Source: an uncultured Spirochaetota bacterium
GTDB lineage: Bacteria > Spirochaetota > Spirochaetia > SZUA-6 > Fen-1364
Direction: 5' to 3'
DNA: 64,000 bases
NCBI GenBank assembly: GCA_963734545.1
Contig: CAVTHO010000005.1
Location: 672,001 to 736,000, forward strand
The notes under the pieces were generated by a model that saw only the letters and a program-made list of their open reading frames with translations, was not told the DNA's origin and did not search any database. Below are positions 10,659-37,279 of this stretch, piece by piece. Made by a program: the position numbers and the translations under genes. How positions within the stretch are numbered: position 1 is the first letter of the stretch; each line of letters starts with the position of its first letter.

Positions 10659-11390
10659 TTATTTTCCGGCGGAACGACCGAGGTATGCTTCCTGGATGCG
10701 CGGATCGGATTTCAGCATCTCTGAAGATCCTTCGACCGCGATCCTGCCGATTTCCAGAACGTACCCCCTGCTGGCCAGCTCCAGCGCCTGCCGTGCATTC
10801 TGCTCCACCAGGAGAATCGCCACGCCCTGGCGGTTGATTTCCAGGATGATATCGAAGATAAGGTGCACGAGAATGGGAGCGAGACCCAGGGAGGGCTCGT
10901 CCAGGAGAAGGATCCGGGGAGTGCTCATGAGCGACCTCCCGATGGCGAGCATCTGCTGCTCTCCGCCGGACAAAGTGCCGGCAAGCTGCCGCCGGCGCTC
11001 CTTGAGAATCGGGAACAACGCGAACACCCGCTCGCGCGCTTTCACGACCTCCCGCCTCTCATTGCGCCGTACGAAAGCGCCGAGGGTCAGGTTCTCCTCG
11101 ACGGTGAGGGTTGCGAACACCCGTCGCCCTTCCGGGGCGTGGGAGATGCCCCTTCGCACGATGTCATAGGCGGGGACGCGGTGCAGCGGGGCGCCCTGAA
11201 AACGCACCTCTCCGCTCTGTGCCGGGAGAAGCCCGGAGATGGCGCGCAGGAGCGTGCTCTTGCCGGCGCCGTTGGCCCCCAGGACCGTGACGATCTCGCC
11301 TTCCTCCATCGAGAGGCTCACGTCCTTGAGAGCAACCCGCGCCCCGTAGCGGATGCGGAGGTCCCTCACCTGCAGCAGCGGCACGCTCAT
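10659..11390 (-). CDS. livF: Branched-chain amino acid ABC transporter ATPase
   Basis: GANGAGKS, PEGRRVF, LSGGEQQM, LLDEPSLGLAP. Confidence 0.95.
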   Translation of the reverse strand: MSVPLLQVRDLRIRYGARVALKDVSLSMEEGEIVTVLGANGAGKSTLLRAISGLLPAQSGEVRFQGAPLHRVPAYDIVRRGISHAPEGRRVFATLTVEENLTLGAFVRRNERREVVKARERVFALFPILKERRRQLAGTLSGGEQQMLAIGRSLMSTPRILLLDEPSLGLAPILVHLIFDIILEINRQGVAILLVEQNARQALELASRGYVLEIGRIAVEGSSEMLKSDPRIQEAYLGRSAGK

Positions 11391-12208
11391 GATCTCCCGC
11401 CCAGGTAGGCTTCAATGACTTTCGGGTCATGATAGATATGCGCGGGAGGGCCCTCTGAGATCTTCTCCCCCCCGTCCATGACGGTGACCCAGTCGGAAAT
11501 GCCCATGACGACATTCATGTCGTGCTCGATCAGGAGAACGGTGAGCTGCTCGCTGCGTATGATGGCGCGAATGAACTCCATGAGGTCTTCCGTCTCCCGT
11601 GGATTGAGACCGCTGGAGGGCTCGTCCAGAACCAGGAGACGCGGGGAGGTTGCAAGGGCGCGCGCGATTTCCAGCATCCGCTGCCGGCCATAGGGGATGT
11701 TGCGCGCAAGCTCGTTGCGGGATTCCCAGAGCCCCACCAGCCGCAGCCTTTCCTCCGCGTGCTCCTGGATTTCACGCTCCTCCTTGCGCTGCGCTCTTGT
11801 GCGGAACAGGGACGCGGCCACTCCCGAGAAGGTGCGGCAGTGCTGCCCGGCCATGACGTTTTCCAGGCAGGACATGTTCGAGAACAGGCGGAGGTTCTGG
11901 AACGTGCGGGCGATCCCCTTCTCCACGATCAGGTGGGGCGGCCGGCCGGTGATCTCCTTTCCTTCGAAATAGACGGTCCCGCGCTCCGGCCGATAGATGC
12001 CCGTCACCACGTTGAACACGGTGGTCTTGCCCGCGCCGTTGGGCCCGATCAGGCTCGCGATCTCTCCCCTGTGCACGCGCATGTCCAGGGACTCCACCGC
12101 GGCAAGCCCGCCGAAGCTCTTTGTCAGCCCCGCCGTCTCGAGCACGATCGCGCCGTCCCTCGAGAATGTGCCCTTCGCCGCTGGATCGCGGGCCTGCCGG
12201 CTACCCAT
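11387..12208 (-). CDS. livG: Branched-chain amino acid ABC transporter ATPase
   Basis: GPNGAGKTT, IARTFQN, LDEP, IEHDM, VIEAYLG. Confidence 0.95.
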   Translation of the reverse strand: MGSRQARDPAAKGTFSRDGAIVLETAGLTKSFGGLAAVESLDMRVHRGEIASLIGPNGAGKTTVFNVVTGIYRPERGTVYFEGKEITGRPPHLIVEKGIARTFQNLRLFSNMSCLENVMAGQHCRTFSGVAASLFRTRAQRKEEREIQEHAEERLRLVGLWESRNELARNIPYGRQRMLEIARALATSPRLLVLDEPSSGLNPRETEDLMEFIRAIIRSEQLTVLLIEHDMNVVMGISDWVTVMDGGEKISEGPPAHIYHDPKVIEAYLGGRS

Positions 12209-13181
12209 CCCGCCTCCACAGCTTCCGCAGCAGCTCGCGACCTTCCATTCCGCCGCGGCGGCGGGGCCAGAGGCCGCCGGGCCTCACCATCATCATGAGG
12301 ATCATGGCGACTCCGAAGACGACCATGCGATAGTTGGCGAACGAGCGAAAGATTTCCGGGAAGAGGCTGACCGCCGCCGCGCCGATGATCACGCCCGGCA
12401 CCGATCCCATGCCGCCGATCAGCACGATGCTGAACATCAGGCACGACTCCCAGAAGCTGAAGCTCTCCGGGGACACGATGAGGAGCTTGCTCGCGTAGAG
12501 GTTTCCCGCGATCCCGGCCAGGGCCGCGCCCAGCACAAAGGCGAGGAGCTTGTACGCGCGTACGTTGATTCCGGCGGCCTGCGCGGCCACCTCGTCCTCC
12601 CGGATGCAGTTCCACGCCCTGCCGATTCGCGAGCGCTGCAGCCGAAGCAGGCCGAAGACGCTCACGCCGACCACGATCCAGACCAGGAAATAGTAGCCGA
12701 GGGAGCTGTCGATGGTCAGAAATCCGAGTGAAGGGGATTGGATCCCGCTCACACCGTTGGGACCCCCGGTCAGCCCGAAGGGGTTGTTGATCAGGGCGAG
12801 ACGCACGATCTCCCCCATGCCGATGGTGACGATGCAGAGGTAGTCTCCCCGCAGGTGGATGATGGGGAATGTCACCAGGTAGGCGAAGAGGCCGGCGGCC
12901 ACGGCGCTGATGGGAAGCAGGACGAGTATCGGGATGCCGAAATGGGTGTTGAGGATGGCCGTGGTGTAGGCGCCGATGGCATAGAAGCCGGCATGCCCGA
13001 GGTCGTACAGGCCCGCCTCCCCCAGGACGATGTTCAGGCTCAGGCCGAGAAGAACATAGATGCCGAAGAAGAAACCCACGTCGATGAGATAGCCCGCCGT
13101 CATGAGCGGGTAGGCGGCGAAGGCGGCGATCACGAGCGGAATCGCCGCGCGGCGGAGGACGGGGGTGAGCGTGCCGGCCAT
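12201..13181 (-). CDS. livM: Branched-chain amino acid ABC transporter permease
   Basis: LRGDYL.IVT, TGGPNG, IREDEVAA...GIN, GGMGS. Confidence 0.95.
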   Translation of the reverse strand: MAGTLTPVLRRAAIPLVIAAFAAYPLMTAGYLIDVGFFFGIYVLLGLSLNIVLGEAGLYDLGHAGFYAIGAYTTAILNTHFGIPILVLLPISAVAAGLFAYLVTFPIIHLRGDYLCIVTIGMGEIVRLALINNPFGLTGGPNGVSGIQSPSLGFLTIDSSLGYYFLVWIVVGVSVFGLLRLQRSRIGRAWNCIREDEVAAQAAGINVRAYKLLAFVLGAALAGIAGNLYASKLLIVSPESFSFWESCLMFSIVLIGGMGSVPGVIIGAAAVSLFPEIFRSFANYRMVVFGVAMILMMMVRPGGLWPRRRGGMEGRELLRKLWRRDG

Positions 13182-13183
13182 TC

Positions 13184-14095
13184 TCAGACCTTTTCCGCTA
13201 TCTTCTCACCGAAAAGGCCGTTGGGGCGGAAGATCAGAACGAGGATCAGGATGAGAAAGACGAACACGTCCTTCCAGGCCGTGGAGATATAGGCGCTGCC
13301 GAACATTTCCAGCACCCCGAGGATCAGGCCGCCGAACATCGCCCCGGGAAGATTTCCGATCCCGCCCAGGATCGTGGCGGTGAAGGCCTTCAAACCGTAG
13401 TTCCAGCCCATGGTGAAGCTGATCTGACGGTAGTACACGCCGACCATCACGCCGGTCAGCGCGCCGAGGGCGGGACCCAGGATGAAGATGAACCGGATCA
13501 CCTTGTTGAAGTTGATGCCCATCAAGGCTGCCGTGTCGCGGTCCAGGGCCGTCGCGCGGATCGCGGCCCCCCACGTGGTTTTCTGGATCACGAAGTACAG
13601 CACGGTCATGAGAAGGAAGGAGACCGCGAGGATCAGGATCTGCAGCGCGGTCAGGCTGATGCCTCCGATCACGATGTGCATGTTGGGTATCAGCTTCGCA
13701 GGATACGCCTGGTAGCGCGGTCCCCATACGATCATGATGAGGTTCTGCAAGACAAGAGACGCACCGAGCGCGGAGACCACGGCGGGCAGCCGGCCCGCCG
13801 GATAGATGGGCCGGTAGGCCACCCGCTCGACCAGGACGCCCACCAGGGCGAGACAGAGGGCGGCGGCGATCATGGCGACCGCCAGCCCGCCCCACAAGCC
13901 CAGGTGGGTCGTCACGAAAGCCGCCCCGAGCACCAGCAGGGTGTAGCCGAGGTACGAGCCCAGGGTGAAGAAGTCCCCGTGGGCGAAGTTGATCAGCTTC
14001 AGCACGCCGTAGACCATGGAGTAGCCCAGCGCGATCAGCCCGTAGAACGAGCCGATGGTGAGACCGTTGATCAACTGCTCGAGAAACACCCGCAT
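13184..14095 (-). CDS. livH: Branched-chain amino acid ABC transporter permease
   Basis: QLINGL..GS.Y.LIALGYSMVYG...INFAHG, GLKAF...LGGIG. Confidence 0.95.
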   Translation of the reverse strand: MRVFLEQLINGLTIGSFYGLIALGYSMVYGVLKLINFAHGDFFTLGSYLGYTLLVLGAAFVTTHLGLWGGLAVAMIAAALCLALVGVLVERVAYRPIYPAGRLPAVVSALGASLVLQNLIMIVWGPRYQAYPAKLIPNMHIVIGGISLTALQILILAVSFLLMTVLYFVIQKTTWGAAIRATALDRDTAALMGINFNKVIRFIFILGPALGALTGVMVGVYYRQISFTMGWNYGLKAFTATILGGIGNLPGAMFGGLILGVLEMFGSAYISTAWKDVFVFLILILVLIFRPNGLFGEKIAEKV

Positions 14096-14104
14096 CGTGT
14101 CCGG

Positions 14105-15257
14105 CTACTTGGAGATGACGATATTCCCCTGGTCGTCCACCACGTAGAGGAAGAAAGGCACCCCTTCGCGATCACCCTTGTCGGTGAATCCGATCTTGCC
14201 GGTGATCCCCGGGACTCCGTTCACCTTGTTGCGCAGGTAGTCGGCAAGCACGGTCCCGTCCGAGGCGCCGGACGCGTTCAGGGCATACGCGATGATGTTG
14301 ACAGCGTCTGCCGCGTAGACAGGCCACGGGCTGGAGGGGATCTCTCCGAACTTGTCCTTGTAGGCCTTGAGGAACTCGGCCGCCTCGCTGGTGGGAAGGT
14401 CTGCCGGGCAGGGGCTCGTTCGTCATGTAGCAGCCCTTGGCCATGTCGAGACCCGCAATCTTGACGAACTCGTCGTTGATCGCAGCATTTCCGCCCACGA
14501 ACGGGCAGGTGATCCCGATCTCCCGCGCCTGCGTGACAAGGAGCGCCGCCTCGGCATAGTAGCCGGTGTAGTACCACACATCGGGCTTGGCTTCCCGCAT
14601 CTTGGTGAGGGGAACGTGGAAATCTTTCTCCCCGGGGGTGATGGCATCGTAGTACACGATCTGCACCTTGCCCGCGTCCACCATCGGCTTCAGCGCGTCG
14701 CGCGCGTTTTCCGCCAGACCTTTTCCGAACGCGGTGTTGTCGTGCATGATCGCGATCCGCTTGGCGCCGAACTTCTGCGGGACGAAGCCTGGGCAAAGAA
14801 CTTGCCCCTGGTTGTCGTCCCGACCGCACGTGCGGAAGAAGTACTTCAGGCCATGCTCGGTGAGCCGCACCGCCGTGGAGCCGTAGGCGATGTTCACCAT
14901 CTTGCCCTTCTCGTAGATGTTCGAAGCCGGCTCGCTGATGGAGGAGCCGTACGTGGAAACCGAGGCCACGACGCCCTTGCGGCCCACGATCTTCGTGGCG
15001 GCCAGGGCGCCCGTCCGGGGCTGGCCGGCGTCGTCTTCCACGACGATCTGGATCTGCCGCCCGCCCAGGATCCCGCCTTTCTGGTTGATCAGCGCGGCCG
15101 CGATCTCGCAGGACTGCTTGGCCATCTGCCCCTCATAGGCCCAGGGTCCCGTGATGGGGCCCTGCAGGCCGATCAGGATCGGGCCCTTGTCAGCGGCGAA
15201 CCCCGCCAGGGCGCTCATCAGGATGAGAAGAATCGACACGAGTGCCATTCGCTTCAT
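14105..15257 (-). CDS. livK: Branched-chain amino acid ABC substrate-binding protein; apparent frameshift near 14400
   Basis: Signal peptide, GPITGPWA, INQKGGILG, FFRTCGRDD. C-terminus continues in another frame (GITGKIGFTDKGDR...VISK*) to TAG at 14105. Confidence 0.9.
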
Positions 15258-15298
15258 TCGTTTCCTCCTCTTTGAGACTTTCGCTGAGATGATAGATC

Positions 15299-15328
15299 GT
15301 TATATTCGCGCGGCAAGCCCGGTGTCAA
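15299..15328 (-). promoter_or_regulatory. Sigma70-type promoter of the liv operon
   Basis: TTGACA-N18-TATAAC; GAGGAGG RBS before livK. Confidence 0.55.
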
Positions 15329-15338
15329 GAAAGAAAGC

Positions 15339-15438
15339 GCGCCGCCGTAGTCGGCGGATTCAGGGCGCCGCCGTAGTCGGCGGATTCAGGGCGCCGCCGT
15401 AGTCGGCGGATTCGGGCGCCGCCGTAGTCGGCGGATTC
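15339..15438. repeat. Four head-to-tail copies of a 26-bp palindromic unit
   Basis: GCGCCGCCGTAGTCGGCGGATTCAGG at 15339, 15365, 15391 (25 bp), 15416 (partial); each contains CCGCCG-TAGT-CGGCGG. Confidence 0.95.
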
Positions 15439-15465
15439 TAGTCGCGGAGCTACTCTGGGGAGCAT

Positions 15466-16263
15466 ATGAGCGAGCAGCGAATGCCGTGGAATACCACGGC
15501 CGCCATGGATGTGAGGATCGTGCTGGTGAGACCGCGGGATCCCCGGAATGTCGGGGCGGCGTGCCGGGCAATGAAGTGCATGGGATTCACCTCCCTGGCA
15601 ATCGTCATGGATGAGCCGATCGATCCGAGGCAGGCGCGGACCGTGTCGCATTACGCCTCGGACGTGCTGGAGGGCGCCCTGATCTGCACCGACCCCCGGG
15701 ACGTCATCCAGGACGCGGTGCTCGTGGCCGGGACGACGCGCCGGCGGGGAAGGAGCAGGAAGTATTTCACCCTCTTTCCTGAACAGCTGGGCCGGCGTGT
15801 CGCCTCTATAGGGAAGGGAACCGTGGCCGTGCTGTTCGGAAACGAGGAAACGGGACTGACCGATGACGAGCTCGCCCTGTGCCACGTGGCGGTCACCATT
15901 CCCGCCTCTCCGGACTTTCCCTCGCTCAATCTCTCCCATGCCGTGCAGGTGATCTGCTACGAGATCTTCCGCGCGCAGAGCGCCGACCACCTGACGCCGT
16001 TTTCCCCGATAAGCGCCCAGGCAGTGGACGATCTGGTGTCGGTGGTCACCGGGTCTCTCTCGAAGATCGGATTTTTCACGATTGTGGGACCGGAACAGAT
16101 GGGTATCTTCTTCAAGGACATCCTGGGACGGGCGAGTCTCTCCGTGAGCGAGGCACGACGGCTGGGAGTCGTCTTCCGCAAGATCGCCGGGCTCGCGACG
16201 AAGAAGCAGCACGCCCCGCGCGCGCCGGCGAGGGGAATTGACCCGGGAGCGGATCCTCCATAG
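15466..16263 (+). CDS. trmJ: TrmJ/LasT family SPOUT tRNA 2'-O-methyltransferase
   Basis: IVLVRP..PRNVGA..RAMK, LFGNEETGLT, SLNLSHAV. Confidence 0.9.
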   Translation: MSEQRMPWNTTAAMDVRIVLVRPRDPRNVGAACRAMKCMGFTSLAIVMDEPIDPRQARTVSHYASDVLEGALICTDPRDVIQDAVLVAGTTRRRGRSRKYFTLFPEQLGRRVASIGKGTVAVLFGNEETGLTDDELALCHVAVTIPASPDFPSLNLSHAVQVICYEIFRAQSADHLTPFSPISAQAVDDLVSVVTGSLSKIGFFTIVGPEQMGIFFKDILGRASLSVSEARRLGVVFRKIAGLATKKQHAPRAPARGIDPGADPP

Positions 16264-16285
16264 TATGGGCGCAAGGAGTCGTTCG

Positions 16286-16768
16286 ATGCGCAGATCTGTT
16301 CCGCTCCTGGCGTGCGTGATCCTCCTTCTGGGCGCCGTCGTTCTCCCCGCCCTTTCACGAGGGGACTTCGACAGGGTCGTGGACTTCTCCGTCACTTTGA
16401 AGACGCTCGCCGCGGCCGCGGACGGGAAGGCGCCCCTCCCCACCGGCAGGATGCTGCTGCTCTCCGGCACCGTCTCCGACGTCAACATTCTCAACAAGGA
16501 CGAACAGGGCTTCAAAGTCAGGATCGAGCTGATCACCGGCGAGTGGATCGGTCTCGAAGACGTGAAGGCGTATGCGTGCTATGTCGAGTTCAGCGGCCGC
16601 GAGTTCTTCAAGGTCTTCCCCGCGCGGGCGCCGCGCACGGCCACTCCGGATGTGATCACACTCAACTCGCGGGTCGTCGTCGTCTGCAGCGCGCTGGATA
16701 TCGTGAATACCCCCCAGGGGGAGAAGCACGTGCGCGCCGCGGGCGCCTACATCAGGGCCATCGAGTAG
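16286..16768 (+). CDS. Exported hypothetical protein (possible OB-fold)
   Basis: AAGGAG RBS, N-terminal hydrophobic segment, beta-rich body with coding-like codon usage. Confidence 0.7.
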   Translation: MRRSVPLLACVILLLGAVVLPALSRGDFDRVVDFSVTLKTLAAAADGKAPLPTGRMLLLSGTVSDVNILNKDEQGFKVRIELITGEWIGLEDVKAYACYVEFSGREFFKVFPARAPRTATPDVITLNSRVVVVCSALDIVNTPQGEKHVRAAGAYIRAIE

Positions 16769-16801: not shown

Positions 16802-17929
16802 TCAGTCGAACGTCACGTCGCGCGCGCCGATTGTTCCCGTGTCCGCTGACAGCGCCGCCCTTTCCATCACGTTGCGAAGCTCGCGTATATTGCCCGGCCA
16901 GTCATGCGCGCAGAGTTTCTCCCGCGCTTCCACGGCAATGGCACCCGGTCTCTTCAGCAGCGAAAGAAAGTGCGCCGCGAGGATCGGGATGTCCTCCCTT
17001 CGCTCCCGCAGCGGGGGGACCCTGATGGGCAGGACGCCGAGCCGGTAAAAAAGGTCGGCGCGGAACCCGCCCTCTCCCGCGTGCCCCTTGAGCTCCCTGT
17101 TCGTCGCCGACACGACACGCACGTCCAGGGGGATTGCGCGGCTGCCGCCTACCCGTGTCAGCTCCTTCTGTTCGATGATCCGGAGAAGCCGGGTCTGCGC
17201 GGCCGGGGACATCTCTCCGATCTCGTCGAGAAAAAGCGTGCCGCCGTTGGCCTGCTCGAAGCTGCCCGGGCGGCATACCGCATCGGTGAATGCGCCCTTC
17301 TCCGCGCCGAACAGCTCGGTCTCCAGGAGCGTTTCGGGAAGCGCGCCGCAGTTGAGGGCGACGCAGGGTCCGCCCCGTCTGCGAGAGGTCTCGTGGATGG
17401 ACCTGGCCACGAGCTCCTTGCCCGTGCCGCTTTCACCCAGGATGAGAACCGGAGAATCCGACGGCGCATAGCGAAGGATGAGCTGCTTCACCTCGCGTAT
17501 GCACGCGCTCTCCCCGATGAGCGACTCCAGAAGCGCCTGGCCGGCGGCGGACGCCGCTGCCCGGCGCGCATCCGCCCCGCTCACGACGGTGCGGAGCGTG
17601 CCCAGGAGCTCCTTCAGCTCGTAGGGCTTGACGATGTAGTCGCATGCGCCCGCCAGTATCGCCTCCTTCACCAGCCGGGGGTCTGTCAGCGCGGTCAGCA
17701 TCACGACGGGCGGCGGCAGGGGCCGGGCCACGATTGCCTTGAGCGCCGCGATGCCGTCCAGATCGGGGAGGTTGATATCAAGGAGAACGACATCCGCTGA
17801 TTCATGCGCGGCGGCCTCGATTCCCTGCCGGGCCGTGTATGCCGAGATCAGCACATAGGGCTCGGGGAGCACCATGTCGAGCGTCCGGTGCGCCTGGGGA
17901 TCATCGTCGATGAAGAGGACTTTTACCAT
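16802..17929 (-). CDS. Sigma-54-dependent response regulator (REC + AAA+), no C-terminal HTH
   Basis: IDDD/LLDINLP/KP receiver; GESGTGKE, ELFG, GAFTDA, FLDEI, WPGNIREL; ends ARDVTFD*. Confidence 0.92.
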   Translation of the reverse strand: MVKVLFIDDDPQAHRTLDMVLPEPYVLISAYTARQGIEAAAHESADVVLLDINLPDLDGIAALKAIVARPLPPPVVMLTALTDPRLVKEAILAGACDYIVKPYELKELLGTLRTVVSGADARRAAASAAGQALLESLIGESACIREVKQLILRYAPSDSPVLILGESGTGKELVARSIHETSRRRGGPCVALNCGALPETLLETELFGAEKGAFTDAVCRPGSFEQANGGTLFLDEIGEMSPAAQTRLLRIIEQKELTRVGGSRAIPLDVRVVSATNRELKGHAGEGGFRADLFYRLGVLPIRVPPLRERREDIPILAAHFLSLLKRPGAIAVEAREKLCAHDWPGNIRELRNVMERAALSADTGTIGARDVTFD

Positions 17930-18057
17930 TTCAGATCAACTTTCTCGCTGGCGGCAATGTACAGGAGCAGGAGGGAATCTGCAAGATCAGGTTCACACGC
18001 TCGTGATCGAGGTGTGCGCGGGCGTCATGGTGGTGTTGTATTGCGGGAAGGCTGCCC

Positions 18058-20325
18058 TTGAATATCAAACGATGGCTTGCGCTGACGCTCGTGAGTGTGT
18101 GCGGAGTGACGTGTGGACCGGCTGGCCCCACTGTCATCCGCGCTGAAAGAGTTTTCACCGGCCACGAGTTTATCGAAGATGTGACAATCCTCATCGAGGG
18201 CGGTCTGATCAGGGAGGTGGTGCCGACTGCAGAGTTCACACCGGTCGAGGGCAGCCAGGTCCTGGACGCGGCAGGAATGACGGTCGTTCCCGGCTTCATC
18301 GATTCACACGTGCACATCCTCGGCCAGCCCCTCGAGGTGCTCAGGAATATCGCGCAATACGGATGGGGCAGGGTGGCGGAGGAAGCGATCTCCCAGGTCC
18401 CGGGCAACCGCGAAGGGTATCTCCAAAGCGGGATCACTTCGGTGATCGACATGGGCTCCACGCTCGCCGGCATGCTGCGCCTGGAGGAAGGACTTGAAAC
18501 CGGGAGCCTGGTCGGCCCTGATCTCTATTTCAGCGGGCCTCTCTTCACAGCGCCGAACGGCCACCCGGCAGGCACGATCTACCGCGGCCAGCACGACCTG
18601 ATAGATAACGCAACCGTGCAGGTTGCGGCGTCCGACCCGGCAGCGAAGAAGGTTGTCGAGTTGGCGGACCGGGGCGTGGATTTCATCAAGCTCGTCTATG
18701 ACGACGGGACCTTCTACGCGGGCAGAGTCCCCCGTCTTGACCGCAGCATCGCGCGCGGGATCGCGGACCAGGCGCATTCACGCGGACTGCCGGTGATCGC
18801 TCACGTGGGCGGCCGCGAATCGGAGTTCGCCGACATGCTGGAGTGCGGAGTGAACGGCGTGGAGCACTGCTTCGCGTACAGCGGATCGGACACGGTGCTG
18901 CACGACATGGCGGCGCGCGGCGTTGTCTTCACGCCCACCCTGTCGATCTACGAAATCTACGCGAAGCAGACGATGCCCCGGATGCGGGAGAGCGTGGCAA
19001 AGGCCCGGGAGAACGGAGTACCGATAGCGGCGGGAACCGATTTCCCCTCTTCCCGCTTTACAACGGCCGGGCCGGGATTCTACCGGGAGCTTGCGCTCCT
19101 CGAGGAGGCCGGCTTGTCGCGGGTCGAGGTGCTCGAAGCGGCCACCGTGAACGGCGCGCGCAAGATCGGAAAGACGGCCGAGACGGGCAGCATCGCAGCG
19201 GGCCGGTTGGCCAACCTTGTTTTCTTCCGCGGGGACCTTCGGGAGGGCGCGATCAGCAGGGAACGCGTTCAGGCAGTGATGCTCCGAGGGAAAATGATGA
19301 TCGAGGAGGGGACCCTGACGGTGGAAAGCCGCAAAGGCCTGACCCGGCAGCCCCTCATGGTGTTCCCGTTCGGGTTCTACGAAACGGTCTCCGGTTTTTC
19401 CATGGGCGGCAGTCTCCTCGACTTCGACGTGCTGGGCTCGGGTGTCGCCCTCGGCCTCACCGCCACGTACAGCTTTTCCAACGCATTCGCAGCGGAGATC
19501 ACCGCATCCACGCCGAGCCCGATACCGCAGACGTCCCTCGACTTCCGGCTGGGCTATGACGGCTACCCGAAACGCTTTTTCGGCATGGACAATTCCACGA
19601 CGCGCGGGGCCGCGGTCACCTATGCATGGTCGGATTTCCAGGCGGCTGTCGCGTCAGCCACGACCCTTCTGCCTGCACTCAAGCTGAATACGGCATTCTC
19701 CCTGGATGCCGCAACGATCGGCGATTACAAGGGACAGGTCCTGCCGAGCATGACGGGAAGCTCCGCAGGAATCATGACGCTCGCGCGGGTGGAGATCGCT
19801 CACGACGCAAGGGATCTCGCGGCCGCGCCATGGTACGGGGACTACGAGGCCGTTGCCGGGGGTCTTTCGGCGCCCTTTCTCGGAAGCGCCTATACTTTCT
19901 CTACCGTTGATCTCGACCTCCGGTTTTTTTTCAGCATCTTCCCCCATCACGTCATCGCTGCCCGGCTGCTCTTCAAGCAATGCTTGGGAGATGCTCCCTT
20001 TTACGCCCGGCCCGACTTCGGCGGCTTTTCACTCGGTCGGGGTTTCCAACCGGACCGTTTCATCGGCAAGCTCGGCGCCTACGGTCAGCTGGAGTATCGC
20101 TTCCCCATATGGTCCCTCATCGGCGGGGACCTCTTCCTGGACGCGGGTCAGGTCCGGGATGATTATCAACGCTTCACACTTGCGGGCTTCCACCTGTGCG
20201 GCGGCGCCGGGCTTCGGTTCACATTCTCCGAGCGCTCGATCCTGTGCGTGGACGCGGGGTTCAACGGCGAGCCGCTCTCGTCGGAGGGGTTCACCATCAT
20301 CGTGCGCACGAGTCACGCGTTTTAG
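18058..20325 (+). CDS. Amidohydrolase fused to C-terminal Omp85/BamA-TamA-type beta-barrel
   Basis: PGFIDSHVH, FIKL, IAH, EH, GTD amidohydrolase ligands. C-terminal GRGF..DRF.G, QLEYRFPI, FLDAGQV, GAGLRF, terminal Phe. Confidence 0.85.
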   Translation: MNIKRWLALTLVSVCGVTCGPAGPTVIRAERVFTGHEFIEDVTILIEGGLIREVVPTAEFTPVEGSQVLDAAGMTVVPGFIDSHVHILGQPLEVLRNIAQYGWGRVAEEAISQVPGNREGYLQSGITSVIDMGSTLAGMLRLEEGLETGSLVGPDLYFSGPLFTAPNGHPAGTIYRGQHDLIDNATVQVAASDPAAKKVVELADRGVDFIKLVYDDGTFYAGRVPRLDRSIARGIADQAHSRGLPVIAHVGGRESEFADMLECGVNGVEHCFAYSGSDTVLHDMAARGVVFTPTLSIYEIYAKQTMPRMRESVAKARENGVPIAAGTDFPSSRFTTAGPGFYRELALLEEAGLSRVEVLEAATVNGARKIGKTAETGSIAAGRLANLVFFRGDLREGAISRERVQAVMLRGKMMIEEGTLTVESRKGLTRQPLMVFPFGFYETVSGFSMGGSLLDFDVLGSGVALGLTATYSFSNAFAAEITASTPSPIPQTSLDFRLGYDGYPKRFFGMDNSTTRGAAVTYAWSDFQAAVASATTLLPALKLNTAFSLDAATIGDYKGQVLPSMTGSSAGIMTLARVEIAHDARDLAAAPWYGDYEAVAGGLSAPFLGSAYTFSTVDLDLRFFFSIFPHHVIAARLLFKQCLGDAPFYARPDFGGFSLGRGFQPDRFIGKLGAYGQLEYRFPIWSLIGGDLFLDAGQVRDDYQRFTLAGFHLCGGAGLRFTFSERSILCVDAGFNGEPLSSEGFTIIVRTSHAF

Positions 20326-20367
20326 GATCGCCATGTATTCCGCGGCGGCGGAGTTTCCCGATCTCCC

Positions 20368-21114
20368 TCAGTGTCGATCGCGTGGTCCCCACCGCCATCG
20401 CCAGAGAGGCCGGGTGAAGTTCGGTCTGCCGGGACCATCCGCCCGCGCGGGGGCAGCCGCGACTGCGGTTCCCCCCTCGATCCAGACGTTGATGCTGCGC
20501 GCCACCTCGTCGTCAAGGGCGATGCTCGCCCCCTCGCATTCAATCACGTACGACGGGTACTCCTGGTGGAGCTTGACGACCCCGCCCGGGCGTATCTGCA
20601 GCGAGGTGAGCCGATGAAGCTGCTGGTCGCTTTTTGTGTACACGTATGCGACCCGGGCCGACTGCCCGATCTTCAGCTCTGTCAGGGGCACGATCAGCTT
20701 CTGCACGTAGCGCGCCGAAACCCGGCAGCATTCCCCCTCGGGGATGGGGAACCCATGCGGGCACTCACGGGGATGCCCGAGGAGCGTGCAGATCCCTTCC
20801 ACGATTTCCGTGTTGAGAATGTGCTCGAACTCGCACGCGCCCGGCTCGAACTCCCTGCCCAGCACGTCATGGATGAGCCGCTCGCCTATTCTGTGGGCGC
20901 GGATGAGCCGCTCGGCGTGCGCGGAGCCTGCCTCGGTGAGTGAGATCTCGTCACCTGCCCGGACCACGAGACTGTCCCGCGCGAGCCCGGCAAGGTCCGC
21001 ATCCCGATACCGGTCCGCAAGCTCTCCGCGCAGGGCCGGCACGGTGGAGCAGCCCCGCTCCCGAAGCTGCCAGAGGCGCTCGAGCATCTCGTCCCGATCG
21101 TTCGCGCCGTTCAC
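20368..21114 (-). CDS. DtxR/MntR-like metal-dependent regulator with C-terminal FeoA (SH3) domain
   Basis: GTG start overlapping feoB stop; LTEAG...A..LIRAHRIGERLIHDVL, ACEFEH, LGHPRECPHGFPIP, PLTELKIGQ...LQIRPG. Confidence 0.85.
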   Translation of the reverse strand: MNGANDRDEMLERLWQLRERGCSTVPALRGELADRYRDADLAGLARDSLVVRAGDEISLTEAGSAHAERLIRAHRIGERLIHDVLGREFEPGACEFEHILNTEIVEGICTLLGHPRECPHGFPIPEGECCRVSARYVQKLIVPLTELKIGQSARVAYVYTKSDQQLHRLTSLQIRPGGVVKLHQEYPSYVIECEGASIALDDEVARSINVWIEGGTAVAAAPARADGPGRPNFTRPLWRWRWGPRDRH

Positions 21115-23133
21115 AGGCCGAGCGCTCCCGCCGCAAGAACCAGGAACCCGTGCACCGCGCCGGTGAGGACAAAGGACATCAGGTAGATGCCGATCACGAT
21201 GAGGACGGCGACCCGCGCGCCCAGCTCCTTGAACACGGCCGCGATGTTGGCGAAGCACTGCGCAAACGTGACGAGGAGCACCACCGCCACGACGCTCTGC
21301 ACGCCGTTGAGGATCCCATCCCGTGACATCCGGAGGATCAGGCCGGCCGCGGCCTCGCTGCGCGCCAGGGTGAGAAGCAGGGCATCCACCATGTCCAGGG
21401 GAAGCCCCAGCCAGCCGGTCATGAGCGGCTTCAGGGCCTGCTTCAGGAGCGCCAGGATCCCGAGCTTGTCGATGACGAACATGGCAAGCGCCGCGACCAG
21501 AAAGATGGGGATCGCTTCCCGCAGGAACCAGAGCAGCCGGTATCCTGTTTTTCTGGCGACCGCGGATATGCGCGGCATCCGGATGGGGGGAAGCTCCTGG
21601 ATGAACTGGCTCCCCTTTTCTGCCGGGCAGGATCCTGTTGAGCACGAGGCCGACACCGACCTCCGCCAGCACGAGGAACGCGAAGGCAACGGCGAAATAC
21701 GAAAGCCCGTGCTGGCCGAGGATGGCAATGGCCAGACCCATCTGGGCGGAGCAGGGGATCGCGAAGGCGATGAGGGCGATGACGATGATCTTTTCCTTGC
21801 GGGACTGCAGGTTGCGCGCCGTCATCGTGGCCATGGTCTTGCAGCCGAACCCGAGCACGAGAGGGACGACCGCGTTGCCGGTGATCCCGATCTTTTCTGA
21901 CAACCGCCGGGTGAGGATGGCCAGATTGGGCAGGTACCCGATGTCCTCCAGGAGCCCGAACACGAAAAAGAAGACGGAAAGAATCGGGAGCACCGTGGTG
22001 AGTGAGTTGAAGAGACCGAGTGTGAGAAGCCCGTGGGGCCCGATGAGCAGGTCCTTCCACACGCCGGCGGGAAGAAGAGTACCCACCTCTCTCACCACGG
22101 GGTCAGAAAGCGCCGTTGTAAGGAACAGCGAGAGCGCGCCCGCGACCCCGACGACCATGAGGTAAACGACAACGAGGAAGAACCCGAGGATGGGCAATCC
22201 ATACAGTGGGTGGCGGCACATGCGCGCGAAGGTCTCGGAAAAGCGCGGCTGCGGCGCCCTGGTGGAGGTCGAAACGGCCGCCGCCACCTCGTCCACCCAG
22301 CGGTTCCTGCGCGCGCTCAAGCTTATTCCCGCCTTGCCGGCAAAGCCCGACCTGATCCCCTCCAGCTCTGCTTCCCGGCCTTCGCGCACCGGGTTCCCGA
22401 ACGAGCTCGAGAGGAAGTCACGGAATGAGGGATCGTTTTCCAGGAGAAGGACCGCGGTCTCATGGGGGTGGGGACAGCGCGGCGAGAGCAGGCCGGCAAC
22501 CCTGGCGATTGCCGCATCGAGGGAGCTGCCATAGCGCAGCGGAAGCGGCGCGGAGACGGGCGCCAGGAGGATCCGGGCGAGCTCGGGGATACCTCTGCCG
22601 GGCGCGGGAGACTGCACCACGGGCACCCCCAGCAGGCGGGACAGCTTCTCCGCATCGAGAGACAGGCCCCTCTGCGCGCTCTCCCCCACGGCGGTAAGGA
22701 CCAGGACGAGGGGAATGCCGAGACCCATCAGGTCCGCGGTCAGGAGCAGCGATTCCTTGAACCGATTGGCATCCACGCATTGGACGAGGACGTCCGGGGC
22801 CTCCTCGAAAATCAGGGAGCGCACCACCAGCTCCTCTTCCGATTGTATGTAAAGACCGTGCAGTCCCGGTGTGTCCGCCACCTCCCAGCATTCGTCCTGC
22901 TCGAAACAGACCTGTTTCGCCACTTCCACGGTGGTCGACGGATAATTGGAAACCAGCTTGTACGCGCCGGTGAGGCTGTTGAAAAGCTGGCTCTTGCCGC
23001 TGTTCGGCAGCCCGACAATGTCGATGCGCTTGGGCCGGAGGCTTGCCGCTTCCTGTGAGCCTGTTCCCGCGCCTGCAGTTTTACGAATGAGATTCATTCT
23101 CAAATCATGAGCACGCCTATCCCTGCTTGCCAT
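21111..23133 (-). CDS. feoB: Ferrous iron transporter B; apparent frameshift near 21620
   Basis: GLPNSGKS, NYP.TTVE, DTPG, LEDIGYLP, LGFGC, IPCSAQ; FIQELPP C-terminus lies in the 21111..21728 frame. Start may be 23097. Confidence 0.92.
23088..23102. promoter_or_regulatory. Fur-box-like 7-1-7 inverted repeat at the feoB 5' end
   Basis: TGAGATT-C-ATTCTCA, an AT-rich spot in GC-rich DNA. Confidence 0.55.
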
Positions 23134-34273: not shown

Positions 34274-37200
34274 ATGACGATAAGAGGCGATCTGAGTCTG
34301 GAGATCGACGAGCAGGGCATCGAGGTCCGCATCACGATCGTTCCAGATGAGAATGGCGCGGAGATCTCACCGGAAAGCCTTCAGGCATTGCTTGCGGAGA
34401 AGAAGGTGCGCTCCGGCATCGACTCCGAGGCAATCGACAAAGCGTTTCGTACACTTCTGCGGAAGAAAAACGACCCGGTAAGCTTCATTGCCGCCGCGGG
34501 CACACCGCCCCAGCTCCCGACACCCGAAAGTGTCCAGTTCGAGATTTCGTCCATCCCGCCGCGGCTTGCGCTGATCGCGCGGAGCGTTCTGGCGGCCGCG
34601 CCGCAGCCGCGCGGCTTTCGCGTCCATGAAGCGAAGATCAGGACGGAGAAGAAAGTACTCAAGAAGGGGGCCCTGCCGTTCCTTCGGGGCAGGGAGCAGG
34701 TCGAGGTCGTTGTAGAGAAGAAAACCGTCCGCGAAGAGGTCGAGATCGACCCCACCGTGACGGAAACAGGTTTCGTCGGTCAGGGTGATCTCGTTGCGCG
34801 GGTGCAGCCGAGCAAGCCCGGCAGAGAGGGCAGGAGCGTGTTCGGGAGGCTCGTTCCTGCCCCCCGTCCTGATATGCAGGGCTGGCTGTTCTGTGACGGG
34901 CTTATGCGCACGGGCTCCGAGGCGCGGGCGACCGTCACCGGCTTTCTGCGCAAAGGCGCGAACTGGTGCGATGTGGTGGCATTTCGAGATCATGCCATCG
35001 AGCTTGTCGCTTCGCCTGATCACCTGACGTGCCTGCTTTCGCTCGTTCCGGGAGATCCGTCCGTTCCCGCGCCCGACGTCACGGAGATTCTCGATCGCGC
35101 GCAGAAGCTTGGCTTTTCTCCGGAAACCCTGATTCCGAAGCTCCAGATCGAAGGCATCATACGGGATGCGCTTGCGCGCAAGAGCCCGCTCGTACGAAAG
35201 CCGATCACACCGACGGCAGACGGGCTGGCGACCGTCACCGTGTCTCCGGACAAGCTCAAGGCCGTACTTCACCTGCGCAAGGGCATGGGAGGCGGCAGGC
35301 CGCTCAGCCCGGCAGACGCGAGCGCCGCTATCCGGAAGAGTGTCGTGAAGGGATTCAACCTGGAGACGGTGCAAAAGGATCTCCGCGCCTTTTTCGACGG
35401 GGCGACGATCGAGCTCGCCGACTACCCTCTCGTGCAGGGCCGGCCTCCGAAACCGGGTGCGGAACCCAGGCTCGAATGGCGTGCGCTGTTCCTTTCCACG
35501 GGGGAGGCCAACAAGATCAGGGCCCAGGCCCTCGTGAATGCTGCACACCTCACGGGTCTCGAATCCCTTTCCGCGTTTCCCCTGGAGAGGGTGGAGGCCG
35601 TGGCGCGGGTGAAGCCCGAGACGGAAGTGCTGAAGATCGCGCCGTCCGTCGGGGGCGAGCCCGGCGTCGATGTGTTCGGCGCCACGATATCTCCGCCCAA
35701 GGGCACCATGCCGGACGTCCGCCTTTACGAGGGGCTCGCTCTGCGCAGGGACATGGTGGTGGCCACCGAGTCCGGCATTCTCGAAAAAGGGAGTGACGGT
35801 ATGGCGATTCTTCTCCGGGTGCGCCCCCACGGCGACGCGGAGTTGAATGTCTCCATCTCCGCAGACCGCATGAAAGCCACGTTGTCCTATTTCCCTCCGC
35901 AGGGCGATGGAGTGCGGATTTCCACGCAAGAGGTGAGAGCAAGGATCGGCCAGGCGGGTGTCCGCAAGGGGATCAACGAGGAACGACTGCTTTCTGTGCT
36001 GGAAAGCATTGCCCGGTCCGAGACCCTCAAGGAGGTCCTGATTGCGGAGGGAAAGAAGCCGATGCAGGATGCGCAGAAGCGCATCGTTTTTCACGTCCAT
36101 ATTGCGACTGGGCAGGCCGTCGCTCTGCGGGCGGACGGCAGGGCGGATTTCCGGGCCCAGGATCGGATCACCCGGGTCAGCAAGGGAGAGCTTCTTGCGA
36201 CTGTGAGGCTTCGCGATGCCGCCTCCGAGGATGGATGGGATGTGACGGGCGCGCCGATCGCCCCGCCCCCGGAGGAGACCCTCAAGGCGGGACGCAGGGT
36301 GCGGGCAGAGGTGCAGACGGATGGCAGCGTCCGGTTCGTCGCAGAGAGTGACGGCGAGCTGATCCGGGACGGCAGTCTCATATCCGTGATGGATGCACAC
36401 ACCATTCGTGGCGACGTCGACATGTCCACGGGCAACGTGAACTTTCCCGGAATCGTCCACGTCACCGGCTCGATCACCTCCGGTTTCACGGTTATTGCGG
36501 GAGGCGTCCTGGAGGTCGGCGAGGGGGTGGGAGGAGCCCTGCTCTCCTCAGCAAGCACGATCACCGTGGCTGAAGGCATCAAGGGCGAGGGGAAAGCAAT
36601 CCTGCGTGCCGGGAAGGACATCGAGAGCGGCTTTGCCGAGCAGGCGGTGCTGCTCGCCGTTGGTGACGTCCACCTCCGGGGCGCGTGCGTGCGCTGCCAG
36701 GTCAAGTGCAATGGAAGGCTTCTCCTGGACTCGGAAAAGGGCAGTCTCGTGGGGGGAGAAGTCCGGGCGAGCCGCGGGGTCGTGGCACAGAATATCGGCT
36801 CCCCCGGCGGCACCCGCACCGTCATCTCTTTCGGACAGGACTTCCTCGTGCGGGACCAGATCGAACGCGAGGAGCAGCAGGTCGCCCTCCTGGCGAAAAA
36901 AATCACCGACCTGGACGCGGCCATGCTTATATTGCAGAAGCGGGCGCGCCAGACCGCCGGGGCAATCGCCGGTACTCAGACGCGGAGCGGCGCGCATCCG
37001 AATGCCGCACGCCCGCAGCAGCAGGATGCCGAAGCGCTGGCACGGGCGCGGTCCCAGAAGCTGACGTGCATGAAGGTGATGGAGCAGCGCAAGCTCCGCC
37101 TGATCGGGCTTCGCGACAAGTTCGACGAGCACGTGCCCTCGGAGGTCGTGGTGCGCGGCACCCTCTATCCCGGCGCGATGCTGGAGTGCCACGGCCGGCG

Positions 37201-37279
37201 GTACGAGGCGAAAACAGAAAAGAAGATGATCACCCTGCGATTCGATCCGGCGCAGGGACGGATCGTGGAAAAGATATGA
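34274..37279 (+). CDS. Long FapA/DUF342 family protein
   Basis: Repeated (V/I)S.D.(L/M)KA modules, G..V.G motifs, GDVDMSTGNVNFPG, beta-helix and coiled-coil tail, GTLYPG. Confidence 0.85.
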   Translation: MTIRGDLSLEIDEQGIEVRITIVPDENGAEISPESLQALLAEKKVRSGIDSEAIDKAFRTLLRKKNDPVSFIAAAGTPPQLPTPESVQFEISSIPPRLALIARSVLAAAPQPRGFRVHEAKIRTEKKVLKKGALPFLRGREQVEVVVEKKTVREEVEIDPTVTETGFVGQGDLVARVQPSKPGREGRSVFGRLVPAPRPDMQGWLFCDGLMRTGSEARATVTGFLRKGANWCDVVAFRDHAIELVASPDHLTCLLSLVPGDPSVPAPDVTEILDRAQKLGFSPETLIPKLQIEGIIRDALARKSPLVRKPITPTADGLATVTVSPDKLKAVLHLRKGMGGGRPLSPADASAAIRKSVVKGFNLETVQKDLRAFFDGATIELADYPLVQGRPPKPGAEPRLEWRALFLSTGEANKIRAQALVNAAHLTGLESLSAFPLERVEAVARVKPETEVLKIAPSVGGEPGVDVFGATISPPKGTMPDVRLYEGLALRRDMVVATESGILEKGSDGMAILLRVRPHGDAELNVSISADRMKATLSYFPPQGDGVRISTQEVRARIGQAGVRKGINEERLLSVLESIARSETLKEVLIAEGKKPMQDAQKRIVFHVHIATGQAVALRADGRADFRAQDRITRVSKGELLATVRLRDAASEDGWDVTGAPIAPPPEETLKAGRRVRAEVQTDGSVRFVAESDGELIRDGSLISVMDAHTIRGDVDMSTGNVNFPGIVHVTGSITSGFTVIAGGVLEVGEGVGGALLSSASTITVAEGIKGEGKAILRAGKDIESGFAEQAVLLAVGDVHLRGACVRCQVKCNGRLLLDSEKGSLVGGEVRASRGVVAQNIGSPGGTRTVISFGQDFLVRDQIEREEQQVALLAKKITDLDAAMLILQKRARQTAGAIAGTQTRSGAHPNAARPQQQDAEALARARSQKLTCMKVMEQRKLRLIGLRDKFDEHVPSEVVVRGTLYPGAMLECHGRRYEAKTEKKMITLRFDPAQGRIVEKI

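Follow-up and report, generated by a model that had tools for sequence, protein, structure and literature searches.

What does a metal-dependent hydrolase do when it is built into the same polypeptide as an Omp85 barrel? In textbooks, Omp85 proteins figure as machines for protein insertion and secretion. The question is raised by a single gene in a 64,000-nucleotide stretch of DNA from an uncultured Spirochaetota bacterium (GenBank assembly GCA_963734545.1, contig CAVTHO010000005.1, positions 672,001 to 736,000 of the forward strand), which we refer to as the window and in whose numbering positions are given unless a homologous locus is named. The gene encodes an N-terminal amidohydrolase followed almost directly by a 16-stranded Omp85 barrel. 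We find that this fusion is genuine, that it is conserved in uncultured bacteria, and that it is not an assembly artefact. Our best reading of its function, to which we assign a probability of roughly 0.58, is that of an outer-membrane-anchored carboxypeptidase or N-acyl-amino-acid hydrolase that faces the periplasm beside the barrel seam.

A conserved fusion of an amidohydrolase with an Omp85 barrel

The gene is one unbroken open reading frame (ORF) that opens with a TTG codon. This start is backed by homologue P0003 (78% identity), in which MIVQRWLALT at the N-terminus parallels (M)NIKRWLALT of the window protein. The database copy of the window protein, P0002, has 744 amino acids (aa) and appears to begin farther downstream, in which case it would lack the signal peptide. 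A Pfam scan of the 755-aa protein placed Amidohydro_1 (PF01979) at residues 75-413 (E 2.6e-27, 96.4 bits against a cut-off of 25) and Omp85 (PF01103) at residues 458-704 (E 1.1e-8, 35.4 bits against a cut-off of 24), and contained no POTRA model at E<=1. The architecture is therefore not the canonical POTRA-bearing one of Omp85 proteins, as just residues 417-432 separate the enzyme from strand 1. Matches to NCBIfam models were all below threshold: NF051886, a Caulobacter-type Xaa-Pro dipeptidase, reached 127.5 of the 500 bits set for it, and NF047779, 'Omp85 family outer membrane protein', was matched partially, over residues 565-755 (88.5 bits against a cut-off of 200).

The AlphaFold2 (AF2) model of the full-length protein, obtained from a 41-sequence alignment, has a mean predicted local distance difference test score (pLDDT) of 89.8 and a predicted template modelling score (pTM) of 0.84. 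It comprises a signal helix at residues 2-15, the enzyme at 25-416, a helix at 422-428 and 16 strands between 433 and 750, the enzyme being composed of a TIM barrel and a composite β-sandwich. The coordinates of these parts and of the motifs discussed below are collected in Table 1.

Table 1. Features of the fused gene and its product, with their positions in the window.
Feature	Residues	Position	Strand	Basis or remark
Whole gene, one unbroken ORF with TTG start	755 codons + stop	18058..20325	+	Homologue P0003 backs start
Signal peptide, Sec-type	1 to ~24	18058..18129	+	AF2 helix 2-15, then low-confidence stretch; homologues alike
Amidohydrolase domain, cog1228 / MEROPS M38 type	25-416	18130..19305	+	PF01979, PDB profile matches, Foldseek
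HxH metal ligands (HVH 84-86)	H84, H86	18307..18315	+	Aligned with 9kov, 3mtw ligand motifs
Family-specific conserved loop, GPLFTAPNGHPAGTIYRGQHDL	160-181	18535..18600	+	Alignment invariants; low-confidence part in AF2
Metal ligand	K211	18688-18690	+	Aligned with 9kov, 3mtw
Metal ligand	H249	18802-18804	+	Aligned with 9kov, 3mtw
Metal ligand	H270	18865-18867	+	Aligned with 9kov, 3mtw
Metal ligand	D328	19039-19041	+	Aligned with 9kov, 3mtw
Linker, EGTLTVESRKGLTRQP, 16 residues with short helix 422-428	417-432	19306..19353	+	Pfam, AF2
16-stranded Omp85 barrel, POTRA-less noNterm type	433-755	19354..20322	+	Strand counts, PF01103, NF047779 (partial), Foldseek
Turn T2 (predicted periplasmic), PSPIP	486-490	19513..19527	+	Fused-family-specific
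Turn T4 (predicted periplasmic), Trp	W592	19831..19833	+	Fused-family-specific
Loop 6 (predicted extracellular), between strands 11 and 12	645-671	19990..20070	+	RGF 661-663 at 20038-20046
Strand 13 motif FLDAG	693-697	20134..20148	+	Lid-lock partner of loop-6 Arg

To follow the fusion beyond the window, we used a word-indexed protein search (415-1322 aa; 8000 best candidates scored), which gave 127 proteins at E<=0.001, of which 120 were listed. Among these 120 listed matches, at least 46 clusters, P0002 included, carry both PF01979/PF07969 and PF01103. The fused clusters are mostly 730-800 aa long and 35-78% identical to the window protein, and they bear generic database names such as 'amidohydrolase family protein' or 'imidazolonepropionase-like amidohydrolase'. 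Forty fused homologues from independent assemblies align collinearly with the window protein over the junction (41 sequences, 36-78% identity), with invariant residues in both the enzyme and the barrel halves. No close stand-alone amidohydrolase was found in the same search, where past the damaged copies of the fused gene identity was 29% or lower. The ESM Atlas yielded no usable match.

Relatives are encoded in 298 stretches of a species-representative genome collection, and 74 loci were retained for analysis. The match extends to residue 738 or beyond in ten: a full-length fusion at 62% identity in a Spirochaetota metagenome-assembled genome (MAG; L001), five loci in Bacteroidetes/Bacteroidales MAGs (L002, L003, L009, L011, L013), one in Cyclobacteriaceae (L014) and three in uncultured bacteria (L004, L005, L008). 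Two further loci, both from Spirochaetia (L006, L007), are truncated by contig ends, and in the other 62 the amidohydrolase part alone was matched, at 28-36% identity.

Some relatives are damaged or run on into a neighbouring gene. P0041 together with P0126, and P0051, are frameshifted copies of the fused gene, and in two Bacteroidales loci (L009 6001-7996 and L011 5929-8173) the gene is split into two ORFs within the amidohydrolase part, either by a sequencing-error frameshift or as a pseudogene. Two candidates for a longer architecture were rejected: P0031 (amine oxidase, amidohydrolase and Omp85) has an internal Met with a signal peptide after it and is a two-gene run-on, and P0026 (amidohydrolase to ICMT) tracks the window protein up to residue 522, diverges thereafter and is likewise a run-on. 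Sequences of this kind could be cited for the explanation that a sequencing error merged two adjacent genes in the window. However, the same collinear fusion recurs in the 41 aligned proteins from independent assemblies, the barrel half has no separate signal peptide, and the GC content is uniform along the gene (0.61-0.67), so that such an artefact is effectively refuted already and retains next to no probability. The damaged and run-on copies do not affect this conclusion, which follows from the collinear junction in 41 full-length homologues and the even GC content.

These results bear out most of an earlier reading made from the letters alone (the sequence-only reading). It had claimed a single continuous 755-aa ORF; a complete amidohydrolase site of HxH, Lys, two His and Asp; an Omp85 barrel with RGF, EYRFP, F.D.G.V, G.GLR and a terminal Phe; the absence of POTRA; and a true fusion, with one signal peptide and none on the barrel half. 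Its expectation of a TIM barrel plus a 16-strand barrel was matched by the AF2 model, and that of Amidohydro_1 plus Omp85 in one protein by the clusters listed above. Its 'signal-like segment with Cys' stands as a signal peptide. The lipoprotein reading of the Cys was rejected, as the homologues carry ordinary signal peptides and have no conserved Cys or lipobox.

The enzyme and the barrel

The six ligands of the enzyme align with those of the amidohydrolase structures 9kov and 3mtw. With HxH, a carboxylatable Lys, two His and an Asp on a (β/α)8 barrel, the domain belongs to subtype I, the binuclear amidohydrolases, according to the ligand scheme given in PMC11342369. Across the 41 homologues, H84 and D328 are retained in all, H86 in 39, H270 in 38, and K211 and H249 in 35 each, these last two occurring together in 35 proteins. 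The invariance of H84 and D328 and the joint retention of K211 and H249 indicate that most of the family, the window protein among them, has been under selection for catalysis. The window protein is probably a catalytically competent member of the cog1228 / MEROPS M38 group, its activity being a prediction from the retained ligands.

A profile search of the PDB led to LlADH (9l6p, E 8.9e-41), 2p9b (1.3e-40), 2qs8 (4.2e-40) and Cc2672 (3mtw, 1.7e-37). Foldseek with the full model likewise led to cog1228 amidohydrolases, namely 9kov, Cc2672 (3mtw), 2qs8, 3feq and the ochratoxin-degrading ADH enzymes, with template modelling (TM) scores, normalised to the target, of 0.78-0.86 and identities of 22-26%. 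The nearest characterised relatives, in sequence and in structure, are thus those of the cog1228 / M38 carboxypeptidase-aminoacylase group. These enzymes are described as cutting the amide bond that precedes a C-terminal residue with a free carboxylate (PMC11342369), and their reported substrates include Xaa-Arg/Lys, Xaa-hydrophobic and Xaa-Pro dipeptides, N-acyl amino acids, long-chain ones among them, and ochratoxin A (PMC11342369, PMC11511702). Since the NCBIfam equivalog cut-offs are not reached, no specific substrate can be transferred from these relatives to the window enzyme.

Two features set members of the family apart within the enzyme half. The loop at residues 160-181 has the consensus GPLFTAPxGHPAGTxYxGxH, with G160, T164, P166, G168, P170, Y175, G177, H179 and L181 invariant, and pLDDT values below 50 at residues 171-174 of the AF2 model; this loop may be an active-site lid. 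In addition, a clade of five of the 41 proteins (P0034, P0044, P0048, P0049, P0050) keeps the fusion with its second-metal ligands replaced: K211 by E, S or A, H249 by R, Q or C, H270 by R, S or Q in three members, and H86 by R in two. This clade retains H84, D328, the conserved loop, the barrel and the family-specific R118, H169, Y175 and H179, and its members may have a different metal centre or be pseudoenzymes.

Modelled alone, the barrel reached a pLDDT of 92.6 and a pTM of 0.87, again with 16 strands; in the AF2 model its C-terminal 30 residues are of lower confidence (pLDDT 70-79). Foldseek matched the barrel model to TamA (4c00; E 7.6e-14, TM normalised to the query 0.67) and to BamA barrels (TM 0.61-0.70, rising to 0.74 for Fusobacterium nucleatum BamA, 9ccg). 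A phmmer search of the PDB with the barrel alone gave 0 matches at E<=10, BamA being reached just by profile and fold searches. The Omp85 lid lock has been defined as (V/L/M)RG(F/Y/W) in loop 6 together with FxDxG in strand 13 (PMC11358297). Both elements are present here: in the loop-6 motif GRGF (660-663), R661, G662 and F/Y663 are each found in 41 of 41 sequences, and in strand 13, F693 is found in 38 (W in the other three) and D695 and G697 in 40 each. Further barrel motifs were verified at their coordinates, namely EYRFP (679-683), GAGLR (716-720) and the terminal F755.

We also searched 1.84 billion representatives exhaustively by phmmer, using residues 432-755 (the barrel) as query. An E-value of 0.001 or lower was reached by 2795 proteins, one of 1e-10 or lower by 613, and one of 1e-30 or lower by 18. 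Past the fused family, the next matches are proteins of ~350-420 aa with E-values of 1e-25 to 1e-16, and the seven of them that were scanned (P0155, P0157, P0160, P0176, P0207, P0264, P0122) contain PF01103 only. These nearest kin of the barrel correspond to the noNterm Omp85 subfamily as described by Heinz & Lithgow (PMC4104836), a subfamily that has been studied in Leptospira (PMC11358297). Two features distinguish the fused barrels from it. P486 and P488 occur in all 41 fused proteins, and the PSP motif that they form in none of 28 noNterm barrels; W592 is equally invariant among the fused proteins and equally missing from those 28.

Two stand-alone barrels that have signal peptides of their own are close to the window barrel: P0122 (358 aa, 61% identity, on 7 contigs of which the longest has 260 kb) and P0123 (353 aa, 57% identity, on several contigs). 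Both lack the PSP motif and have R or Q in place of W592. They are nearer to the window barrel than the fused barrels of Bacteroidales, which are 35-38% identical to it. A maximum-likelihood tree of 55 barrels set 12 noNterm outgroups apart from the fused barrels and the stand-alone ones, with a Shimodaira-Hasegawa-like approximate likelihood ratio test (SH-aLRT) value of 100. In this tree, P0122 and P0123 are nested with P0003 and the window protein (SH-aLRT 98). A single clade of all 41 fused barrels, a group named post hoc, was not rejected by the approximately unbiased test (p 0.063, log-likelihood difference 22.2). That P0122 and P0123 derive from fused ancestors by loss of the enzyme domain is favoured but not shown.

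Another combination of a hydrolase with a noNterm-type barrel came to light outside the window. P0272 (857 aa, on 11 contigs) comprises a Lnt-like N-terminal membrane region, a CN_hydrolase domain and the barrel, with a segment resembling a signal peptide directly in front of the barrel. Either two neighbouring genes, lnt and omp85, run on into each other here, or P0272 represents a second fusion of a C-N hydrolase with Omp85.

Placement of the enzyme and its possible role

In the reading that we favour, the single N-terminal signal peptide would send the unfolded chain through Sec, and the C-terminal 16-stranded barrel, ending in an aromatic Phe, would insert into the outer membrane. The amidohydrolase would fold in the periplasm, acquire its two metal ions there and stay docked on the periplasmic rim of the barrel, adjoining the seam between strands 1 and 16. 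The barrel would serve not as a secretion pore but as a platform that holds the hydrolase on the inner side of the outer membrane, and the gene product would be a self-contained outer-membrane protein. Candidate substrates would be the C-terminus of a peptide or lipoprotein, or an inner-leaflet lipid of the N-acyl-amino-acid type. What we infer comprises the orientation towards the periplasm, the docking, the catalytic activity and the substrate class.

In the standard Omp85 topology, common to all solved members, the N-terminus of strand 1 and the C-terminus of the barrel are periplasmic and loop 6 is extracellular. The connections between the strands add up to 94 residues on the loop-6 side and to 36 on the opposite side, which is consistent with this topology. 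The last β-sandwich strand of the enzyme runs to residue 416 and the first barrel strand begins at 433, which would place the folded enzyme at the periplasmic rim near the seam. P486, P488 and W592 are located in predicted periplasmic turns, a pattern that fits a docking surface for the enzyme.

A similar arrangement has been reported for PlpD, whose patatin domain was shown experimentally to be periplasmic; PlpD dimerises and affects membrane lipid levels, and the same work argued on energetic and structural grounds against translocation after folding (PMC11116518). Barrels of the BamA/TamA type are described as closed by a dome of loops (PMC4104836). Taken together, the Omp85 topology, the short linker, the retained lid lock and the re-assignment of PlpD favour a periplasm-facing hydrolase over a surface passenger. 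The 'type V-like' surface display proposed in the sequence-only reading is accordingly not supported, whereas the alternative it had named, a tethered periplasmic enzyme, agrees with the topology, the linker and the PlpD evidence.

We also folded the enzyme (residues 25-430) and the barrel (431-755) as two chains. The docking score was 0.56 (median of three runs), whereas the highest of three controls scored 0.00; at least 95% of contacts are shared between the runs, and the partner has a pLDDT of at least 85. Among 157 solved complexes, 116 attained the pass mark for this score, as did 2 of 215 mismatched pairs, and at scores of 0.60 or lower just 18 of the 157 solved complexes passed, together with both of the passing mismatches. 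Having been obtained with a custom alignment, these calibration counts hold roughly.

Several observations weigh against the periplasmic-platform reading. The two-chain folding lends weak support to docking and came with no reported interface. The T4 residues D583, R585, D586, P591 and G594 are generic to noNterm barrels and provide no interface evidence; turn T4 as a whole was rejected as an enzyme-docking motif, the fused-specific residues being W592 and, in T2, PSP 486-488. In the five-member clade the usual catalysis is doubtful, judging from its replaced ligands, and yet the fusion has been retained. The solved relatives are homo-octamers, with eight chains per PDB entry and, for AnOTA, a reported D4 symmetry (PMC11342369); a tethered subunit could hardly form such an octamer, and the enzyme may differ from its relatives in this respect. 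Its score also falls far short of the NF051886 equivalog cut-off. Finally, close stand-alone barrels exist in P0122 and P0123, and the barrel therefore has some role beyond anchoring.

Among the alternatives, autotransport in the manner of type V systems, where the barrel moves the N-terminal amidohydrolase across the outer membrane for surface display or release, draws on the order of passenger and barrel, which is like that of types Va and Vd, and on the first description of PlpD in these terms, as retold in PMC4104836. By length alone, the 16-residue linker in a fully extended form could span the membrane. However, the protein has no POTRA and no lumen-spanning helix, the sole helix of the linker being 7 residues long, and its passenger is a metal-dependent TIM barrel of ~400 residues rather than a β-helix folding outside the cell. 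Both lid-lock residues are kept, R661 in 41 and D695 in 40 of 41 homologues, as in the closed BamA/TamA barrels, and AF2 puts the two domains in one confident assembly (pTM 0.84). The enzyme domain of PlpD is itself periplasmic, with translocation after folding argued to be unfavourable (PMC11116518). We regard autotransport as decidedly improbable. The conserved loop-6-locking residues and the closure of BamA/TamA-type barrels by a loop dome (PMC4104836) also count against a barrel acting as an uptake pore that feeds external peptides or amides to a periplasmic hydrolase, the channelling option of the sequence-only reading. Such a coupling would sit well with the very short linker, which would fix the enzyme at the barrel mouth, and with the carboxypeptidases and dipeptidases among the enzyme's relatives. 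A Liv-type amino-acid ATP-binding cassette (ABC) transporter lies 0.8-7.4 kb upstream, on the opposite strand, in the window, and genes for PmbA/TldD peptidases adjoin the fused gene in two of the ten loci (L005, L008). The transporter neighbourhood, however, is conserved in none of the other loci, and L005 and L008 are close relatives (66% identity) that amount to about one observation, which leaves an uptake role unlikely.

The enzyme could instead matter chiefly as a fold. If the amidohydrolase replaced POTRA as a binding module, the main role of the protein would be Omp85-type assembly or membrane remodelling, with catalysis secondary or lost. This possibility gains from the five of 41 homologues that keep the fusion and R118, H169, Y175 and H179 without the second-metal ligands, from the persistence of close stand-alone barrels on several contigs (7 for P0122), and perhaps from the low pLDDT (70-79) of the last 30 residues, as might be expected of a dynamic seam between strands 1 and 16. 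Against it stand K211 and H249, present together in 35 of 41 proteins, and the invariant H84 and D328, and no substrate or partner gene is conserved nearby; we consider it very unlikely. A further reading, rather unlikely in our estimate, assigns the seam a more active part. The POTRA-less barrel would hold the metallo-amidohydrolase at the seam, where the bilayer is thinned and disordered by Omp85 barrels, and the enzyme would extract and cleave an amide-linked component of the inner leaflet, with loop 160-181 as a gate. Candidate substrates for such extraction would be N-acyl-amino-acid lipids (of ornithine, lysine or glycine) or the C-termini of lipoproteins or peptides.

Genomic context, known counterparts and significance

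The fused gene stands alone on its strand, with opposite-strand genes on both flanks. We compared its context by Pfam scans of 18 neighbours in the window and 42 neighbours from 9 loci, and by all-versus-all BLASTP of the window and 12 loci. No conserved partner gene is common to the window, L001 and the other clades in this set. DUF998, FMN_red and NmrA were considered as partners and rejected, as they are common among the Bacteroidales loci through the synteny of close relatives. In some Bacteroidales loci (L013 3617-5189, L011 8213-9088, L009 8324-9181), the fused gene adjoins genes for membrane proteins of the ICMT/PEMT and Rce1-like (CAAX protease) families or a gene of the leucine carboxyl methyltransferase family, and an ICMT-like sequence terminates the run-on ORF P0026, a member of another clade. 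The ICMT/PEMT, Rce1-like and PmbA/TldD neighbours are too few as independent observations to count as evidence.

Upstream of the gene, a divergent sigma-54 response regulator of 375 aa (16802-17929, - strand) comprises REC, AAA+ and lid regions, with no DNA-binding helix-turn-helix found by Pfam. The sigma-54 promoter pattern TGG-N8-TTGC has 3 matches in the window (8.25 expected by chance), none of them near the gene or in the 128-bp intergenic region. A scan of 17700-20600 gave 0 sigma-70 sites and one terminator-like site, which lies inside the gene on the minus strand and is below chance expectation. The Liv-type branched-chain amino-acid ABC transporter (10659-16536, -) consists of a binding protein, two permeases and two ATPases; a 403-aa ORF without a Pfam match (15325-16536, -) has the transporter genes downstream of it. 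On the other flank, a convergent gene (20368-23133, -) encodes a 921-aa protein made of an N-terminal FeoB GTPase, Gate, a metal-binding part of the DtxR-type iron-dependent repressors and a C-terminal FeoA, an unusual transporter-regulator fusion. Farther away, a 1001-aa protein (34274-37279, +) contains three FapA_N stretches and a FapA β-solenoid domain, and is preceded by a 676-aa protein with a DUF1573/HYDIN-like Ig domain.

Four known systems resemble the window protein in part. PlpD / FplA, the patatin-like Omp85 proteins formerly termed 'type Vd', likewise consist of one polypeptide with one N-terminal signal peptide, in which a hydrolase precedes a 16-stranded Omp85-type barrel at the C-terminus, and by analogy with the PlpD experiments in PMC11116518 the amidohydrolase is probably also beneath its barrel in the periplasm. 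They differ in having a Ser-Asp patatin lipase instead of a binuclear TIM-barrel metallo-amidohydrolase and a POTRA between enzyme and barrel, and the barrel described here falls in the noNterm group and not in that of PlpD. The noNterm Omp85 proteins (Heinz & Lithgow 2014; Leptospira LIC12252/12254/12258) share the 16 strands, the loop-6 RG(F/Y), the DxRD...P.G turn and the long extracellular loops 3 and 4, and both groups occur in spirochaete and Bacteroidota lineages (PMC11358297 for noNterm). In contrast, they have nothing N-terminal where the fused family has a 400-residue enzyme, together with PSP 486-488 and W592, and D695 is kept in the fused family while most sampled noNterm barrels have G, S or A; the window barrel is also under the NF047779 cut-off (88.5 versus 200 bits).

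The Omp85 'Metallo' proteins (PF00149 + PF01103) are also POTRA-less fusions of a metal-dependent hydrolase with a barrel, reported to be noNterm-related (PMC4104836). Their enzyme is a calcineurin-like phosphoesterase rather than an amidohydrolase. Finally, the cog1228 / M38 enzymes (Cc2672, Sgx9260b/c, 2qs8, ADH3/AnOTA/LlADH and the long-chain aminoacylases) share the fold, the binuclear ligands and a Gly-His loop after strand 3. Apart from the low identity of 22-26%, the fused family differs from them by its own invariant loop and by its tether to the membrane, the solved relatives being soluble homo-octamers.

Fusions of an enzyme to Omp85 were already known, with patatin (PlpD) and with PF00149 ('Metallo'), as surveyed in PMC4104836. 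Amidohydrolase is absent from the ten Omp85 subfamilies of Heinz & Lithgow, the word is missing from the main text of their paper, and neither it nor PF01979 occurs in four supplementary files (PMC4104836). A full-text literature search found no report of an amidohydrolase-Omp85 fusion; PMC3222651 mentions both, in the part that names them, as unrelated table entries. No characterised version has thus come to light, as the sequence-only reading had supposed. What is new here is the amidohydrolase as enzyme partner and its POTRA-less join to a noNterm-type barrel. The sequences were already public under generic names, and all carriers are uncultured.

Work on PlpD in 2024 proposed a further use of the Omp85 scaffold, the positioning of periplasmic enzymes at the outer membrane (PMC11116518). 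The family described here offers an independent test of this idea of Omp85 as an enzyme platform, with another enzyme superfamily, no POTRA and a near-direct join to strand 1, and the close stand-alone barrels provide a natural comparison. It also gives the M38/cog1228 amidohydrolases a branch that is anchored in a membrane. If extraction at the seam were true, the family would be a second independently evolved case, after PlpD, of an Omp85 barrel converted from a machine that assembles proteins into a platform for envelope chemistry, and would bring a new activity of outer-membrane lipid or lipoprotein turnover to Spirochaetota and Bacteroidota.

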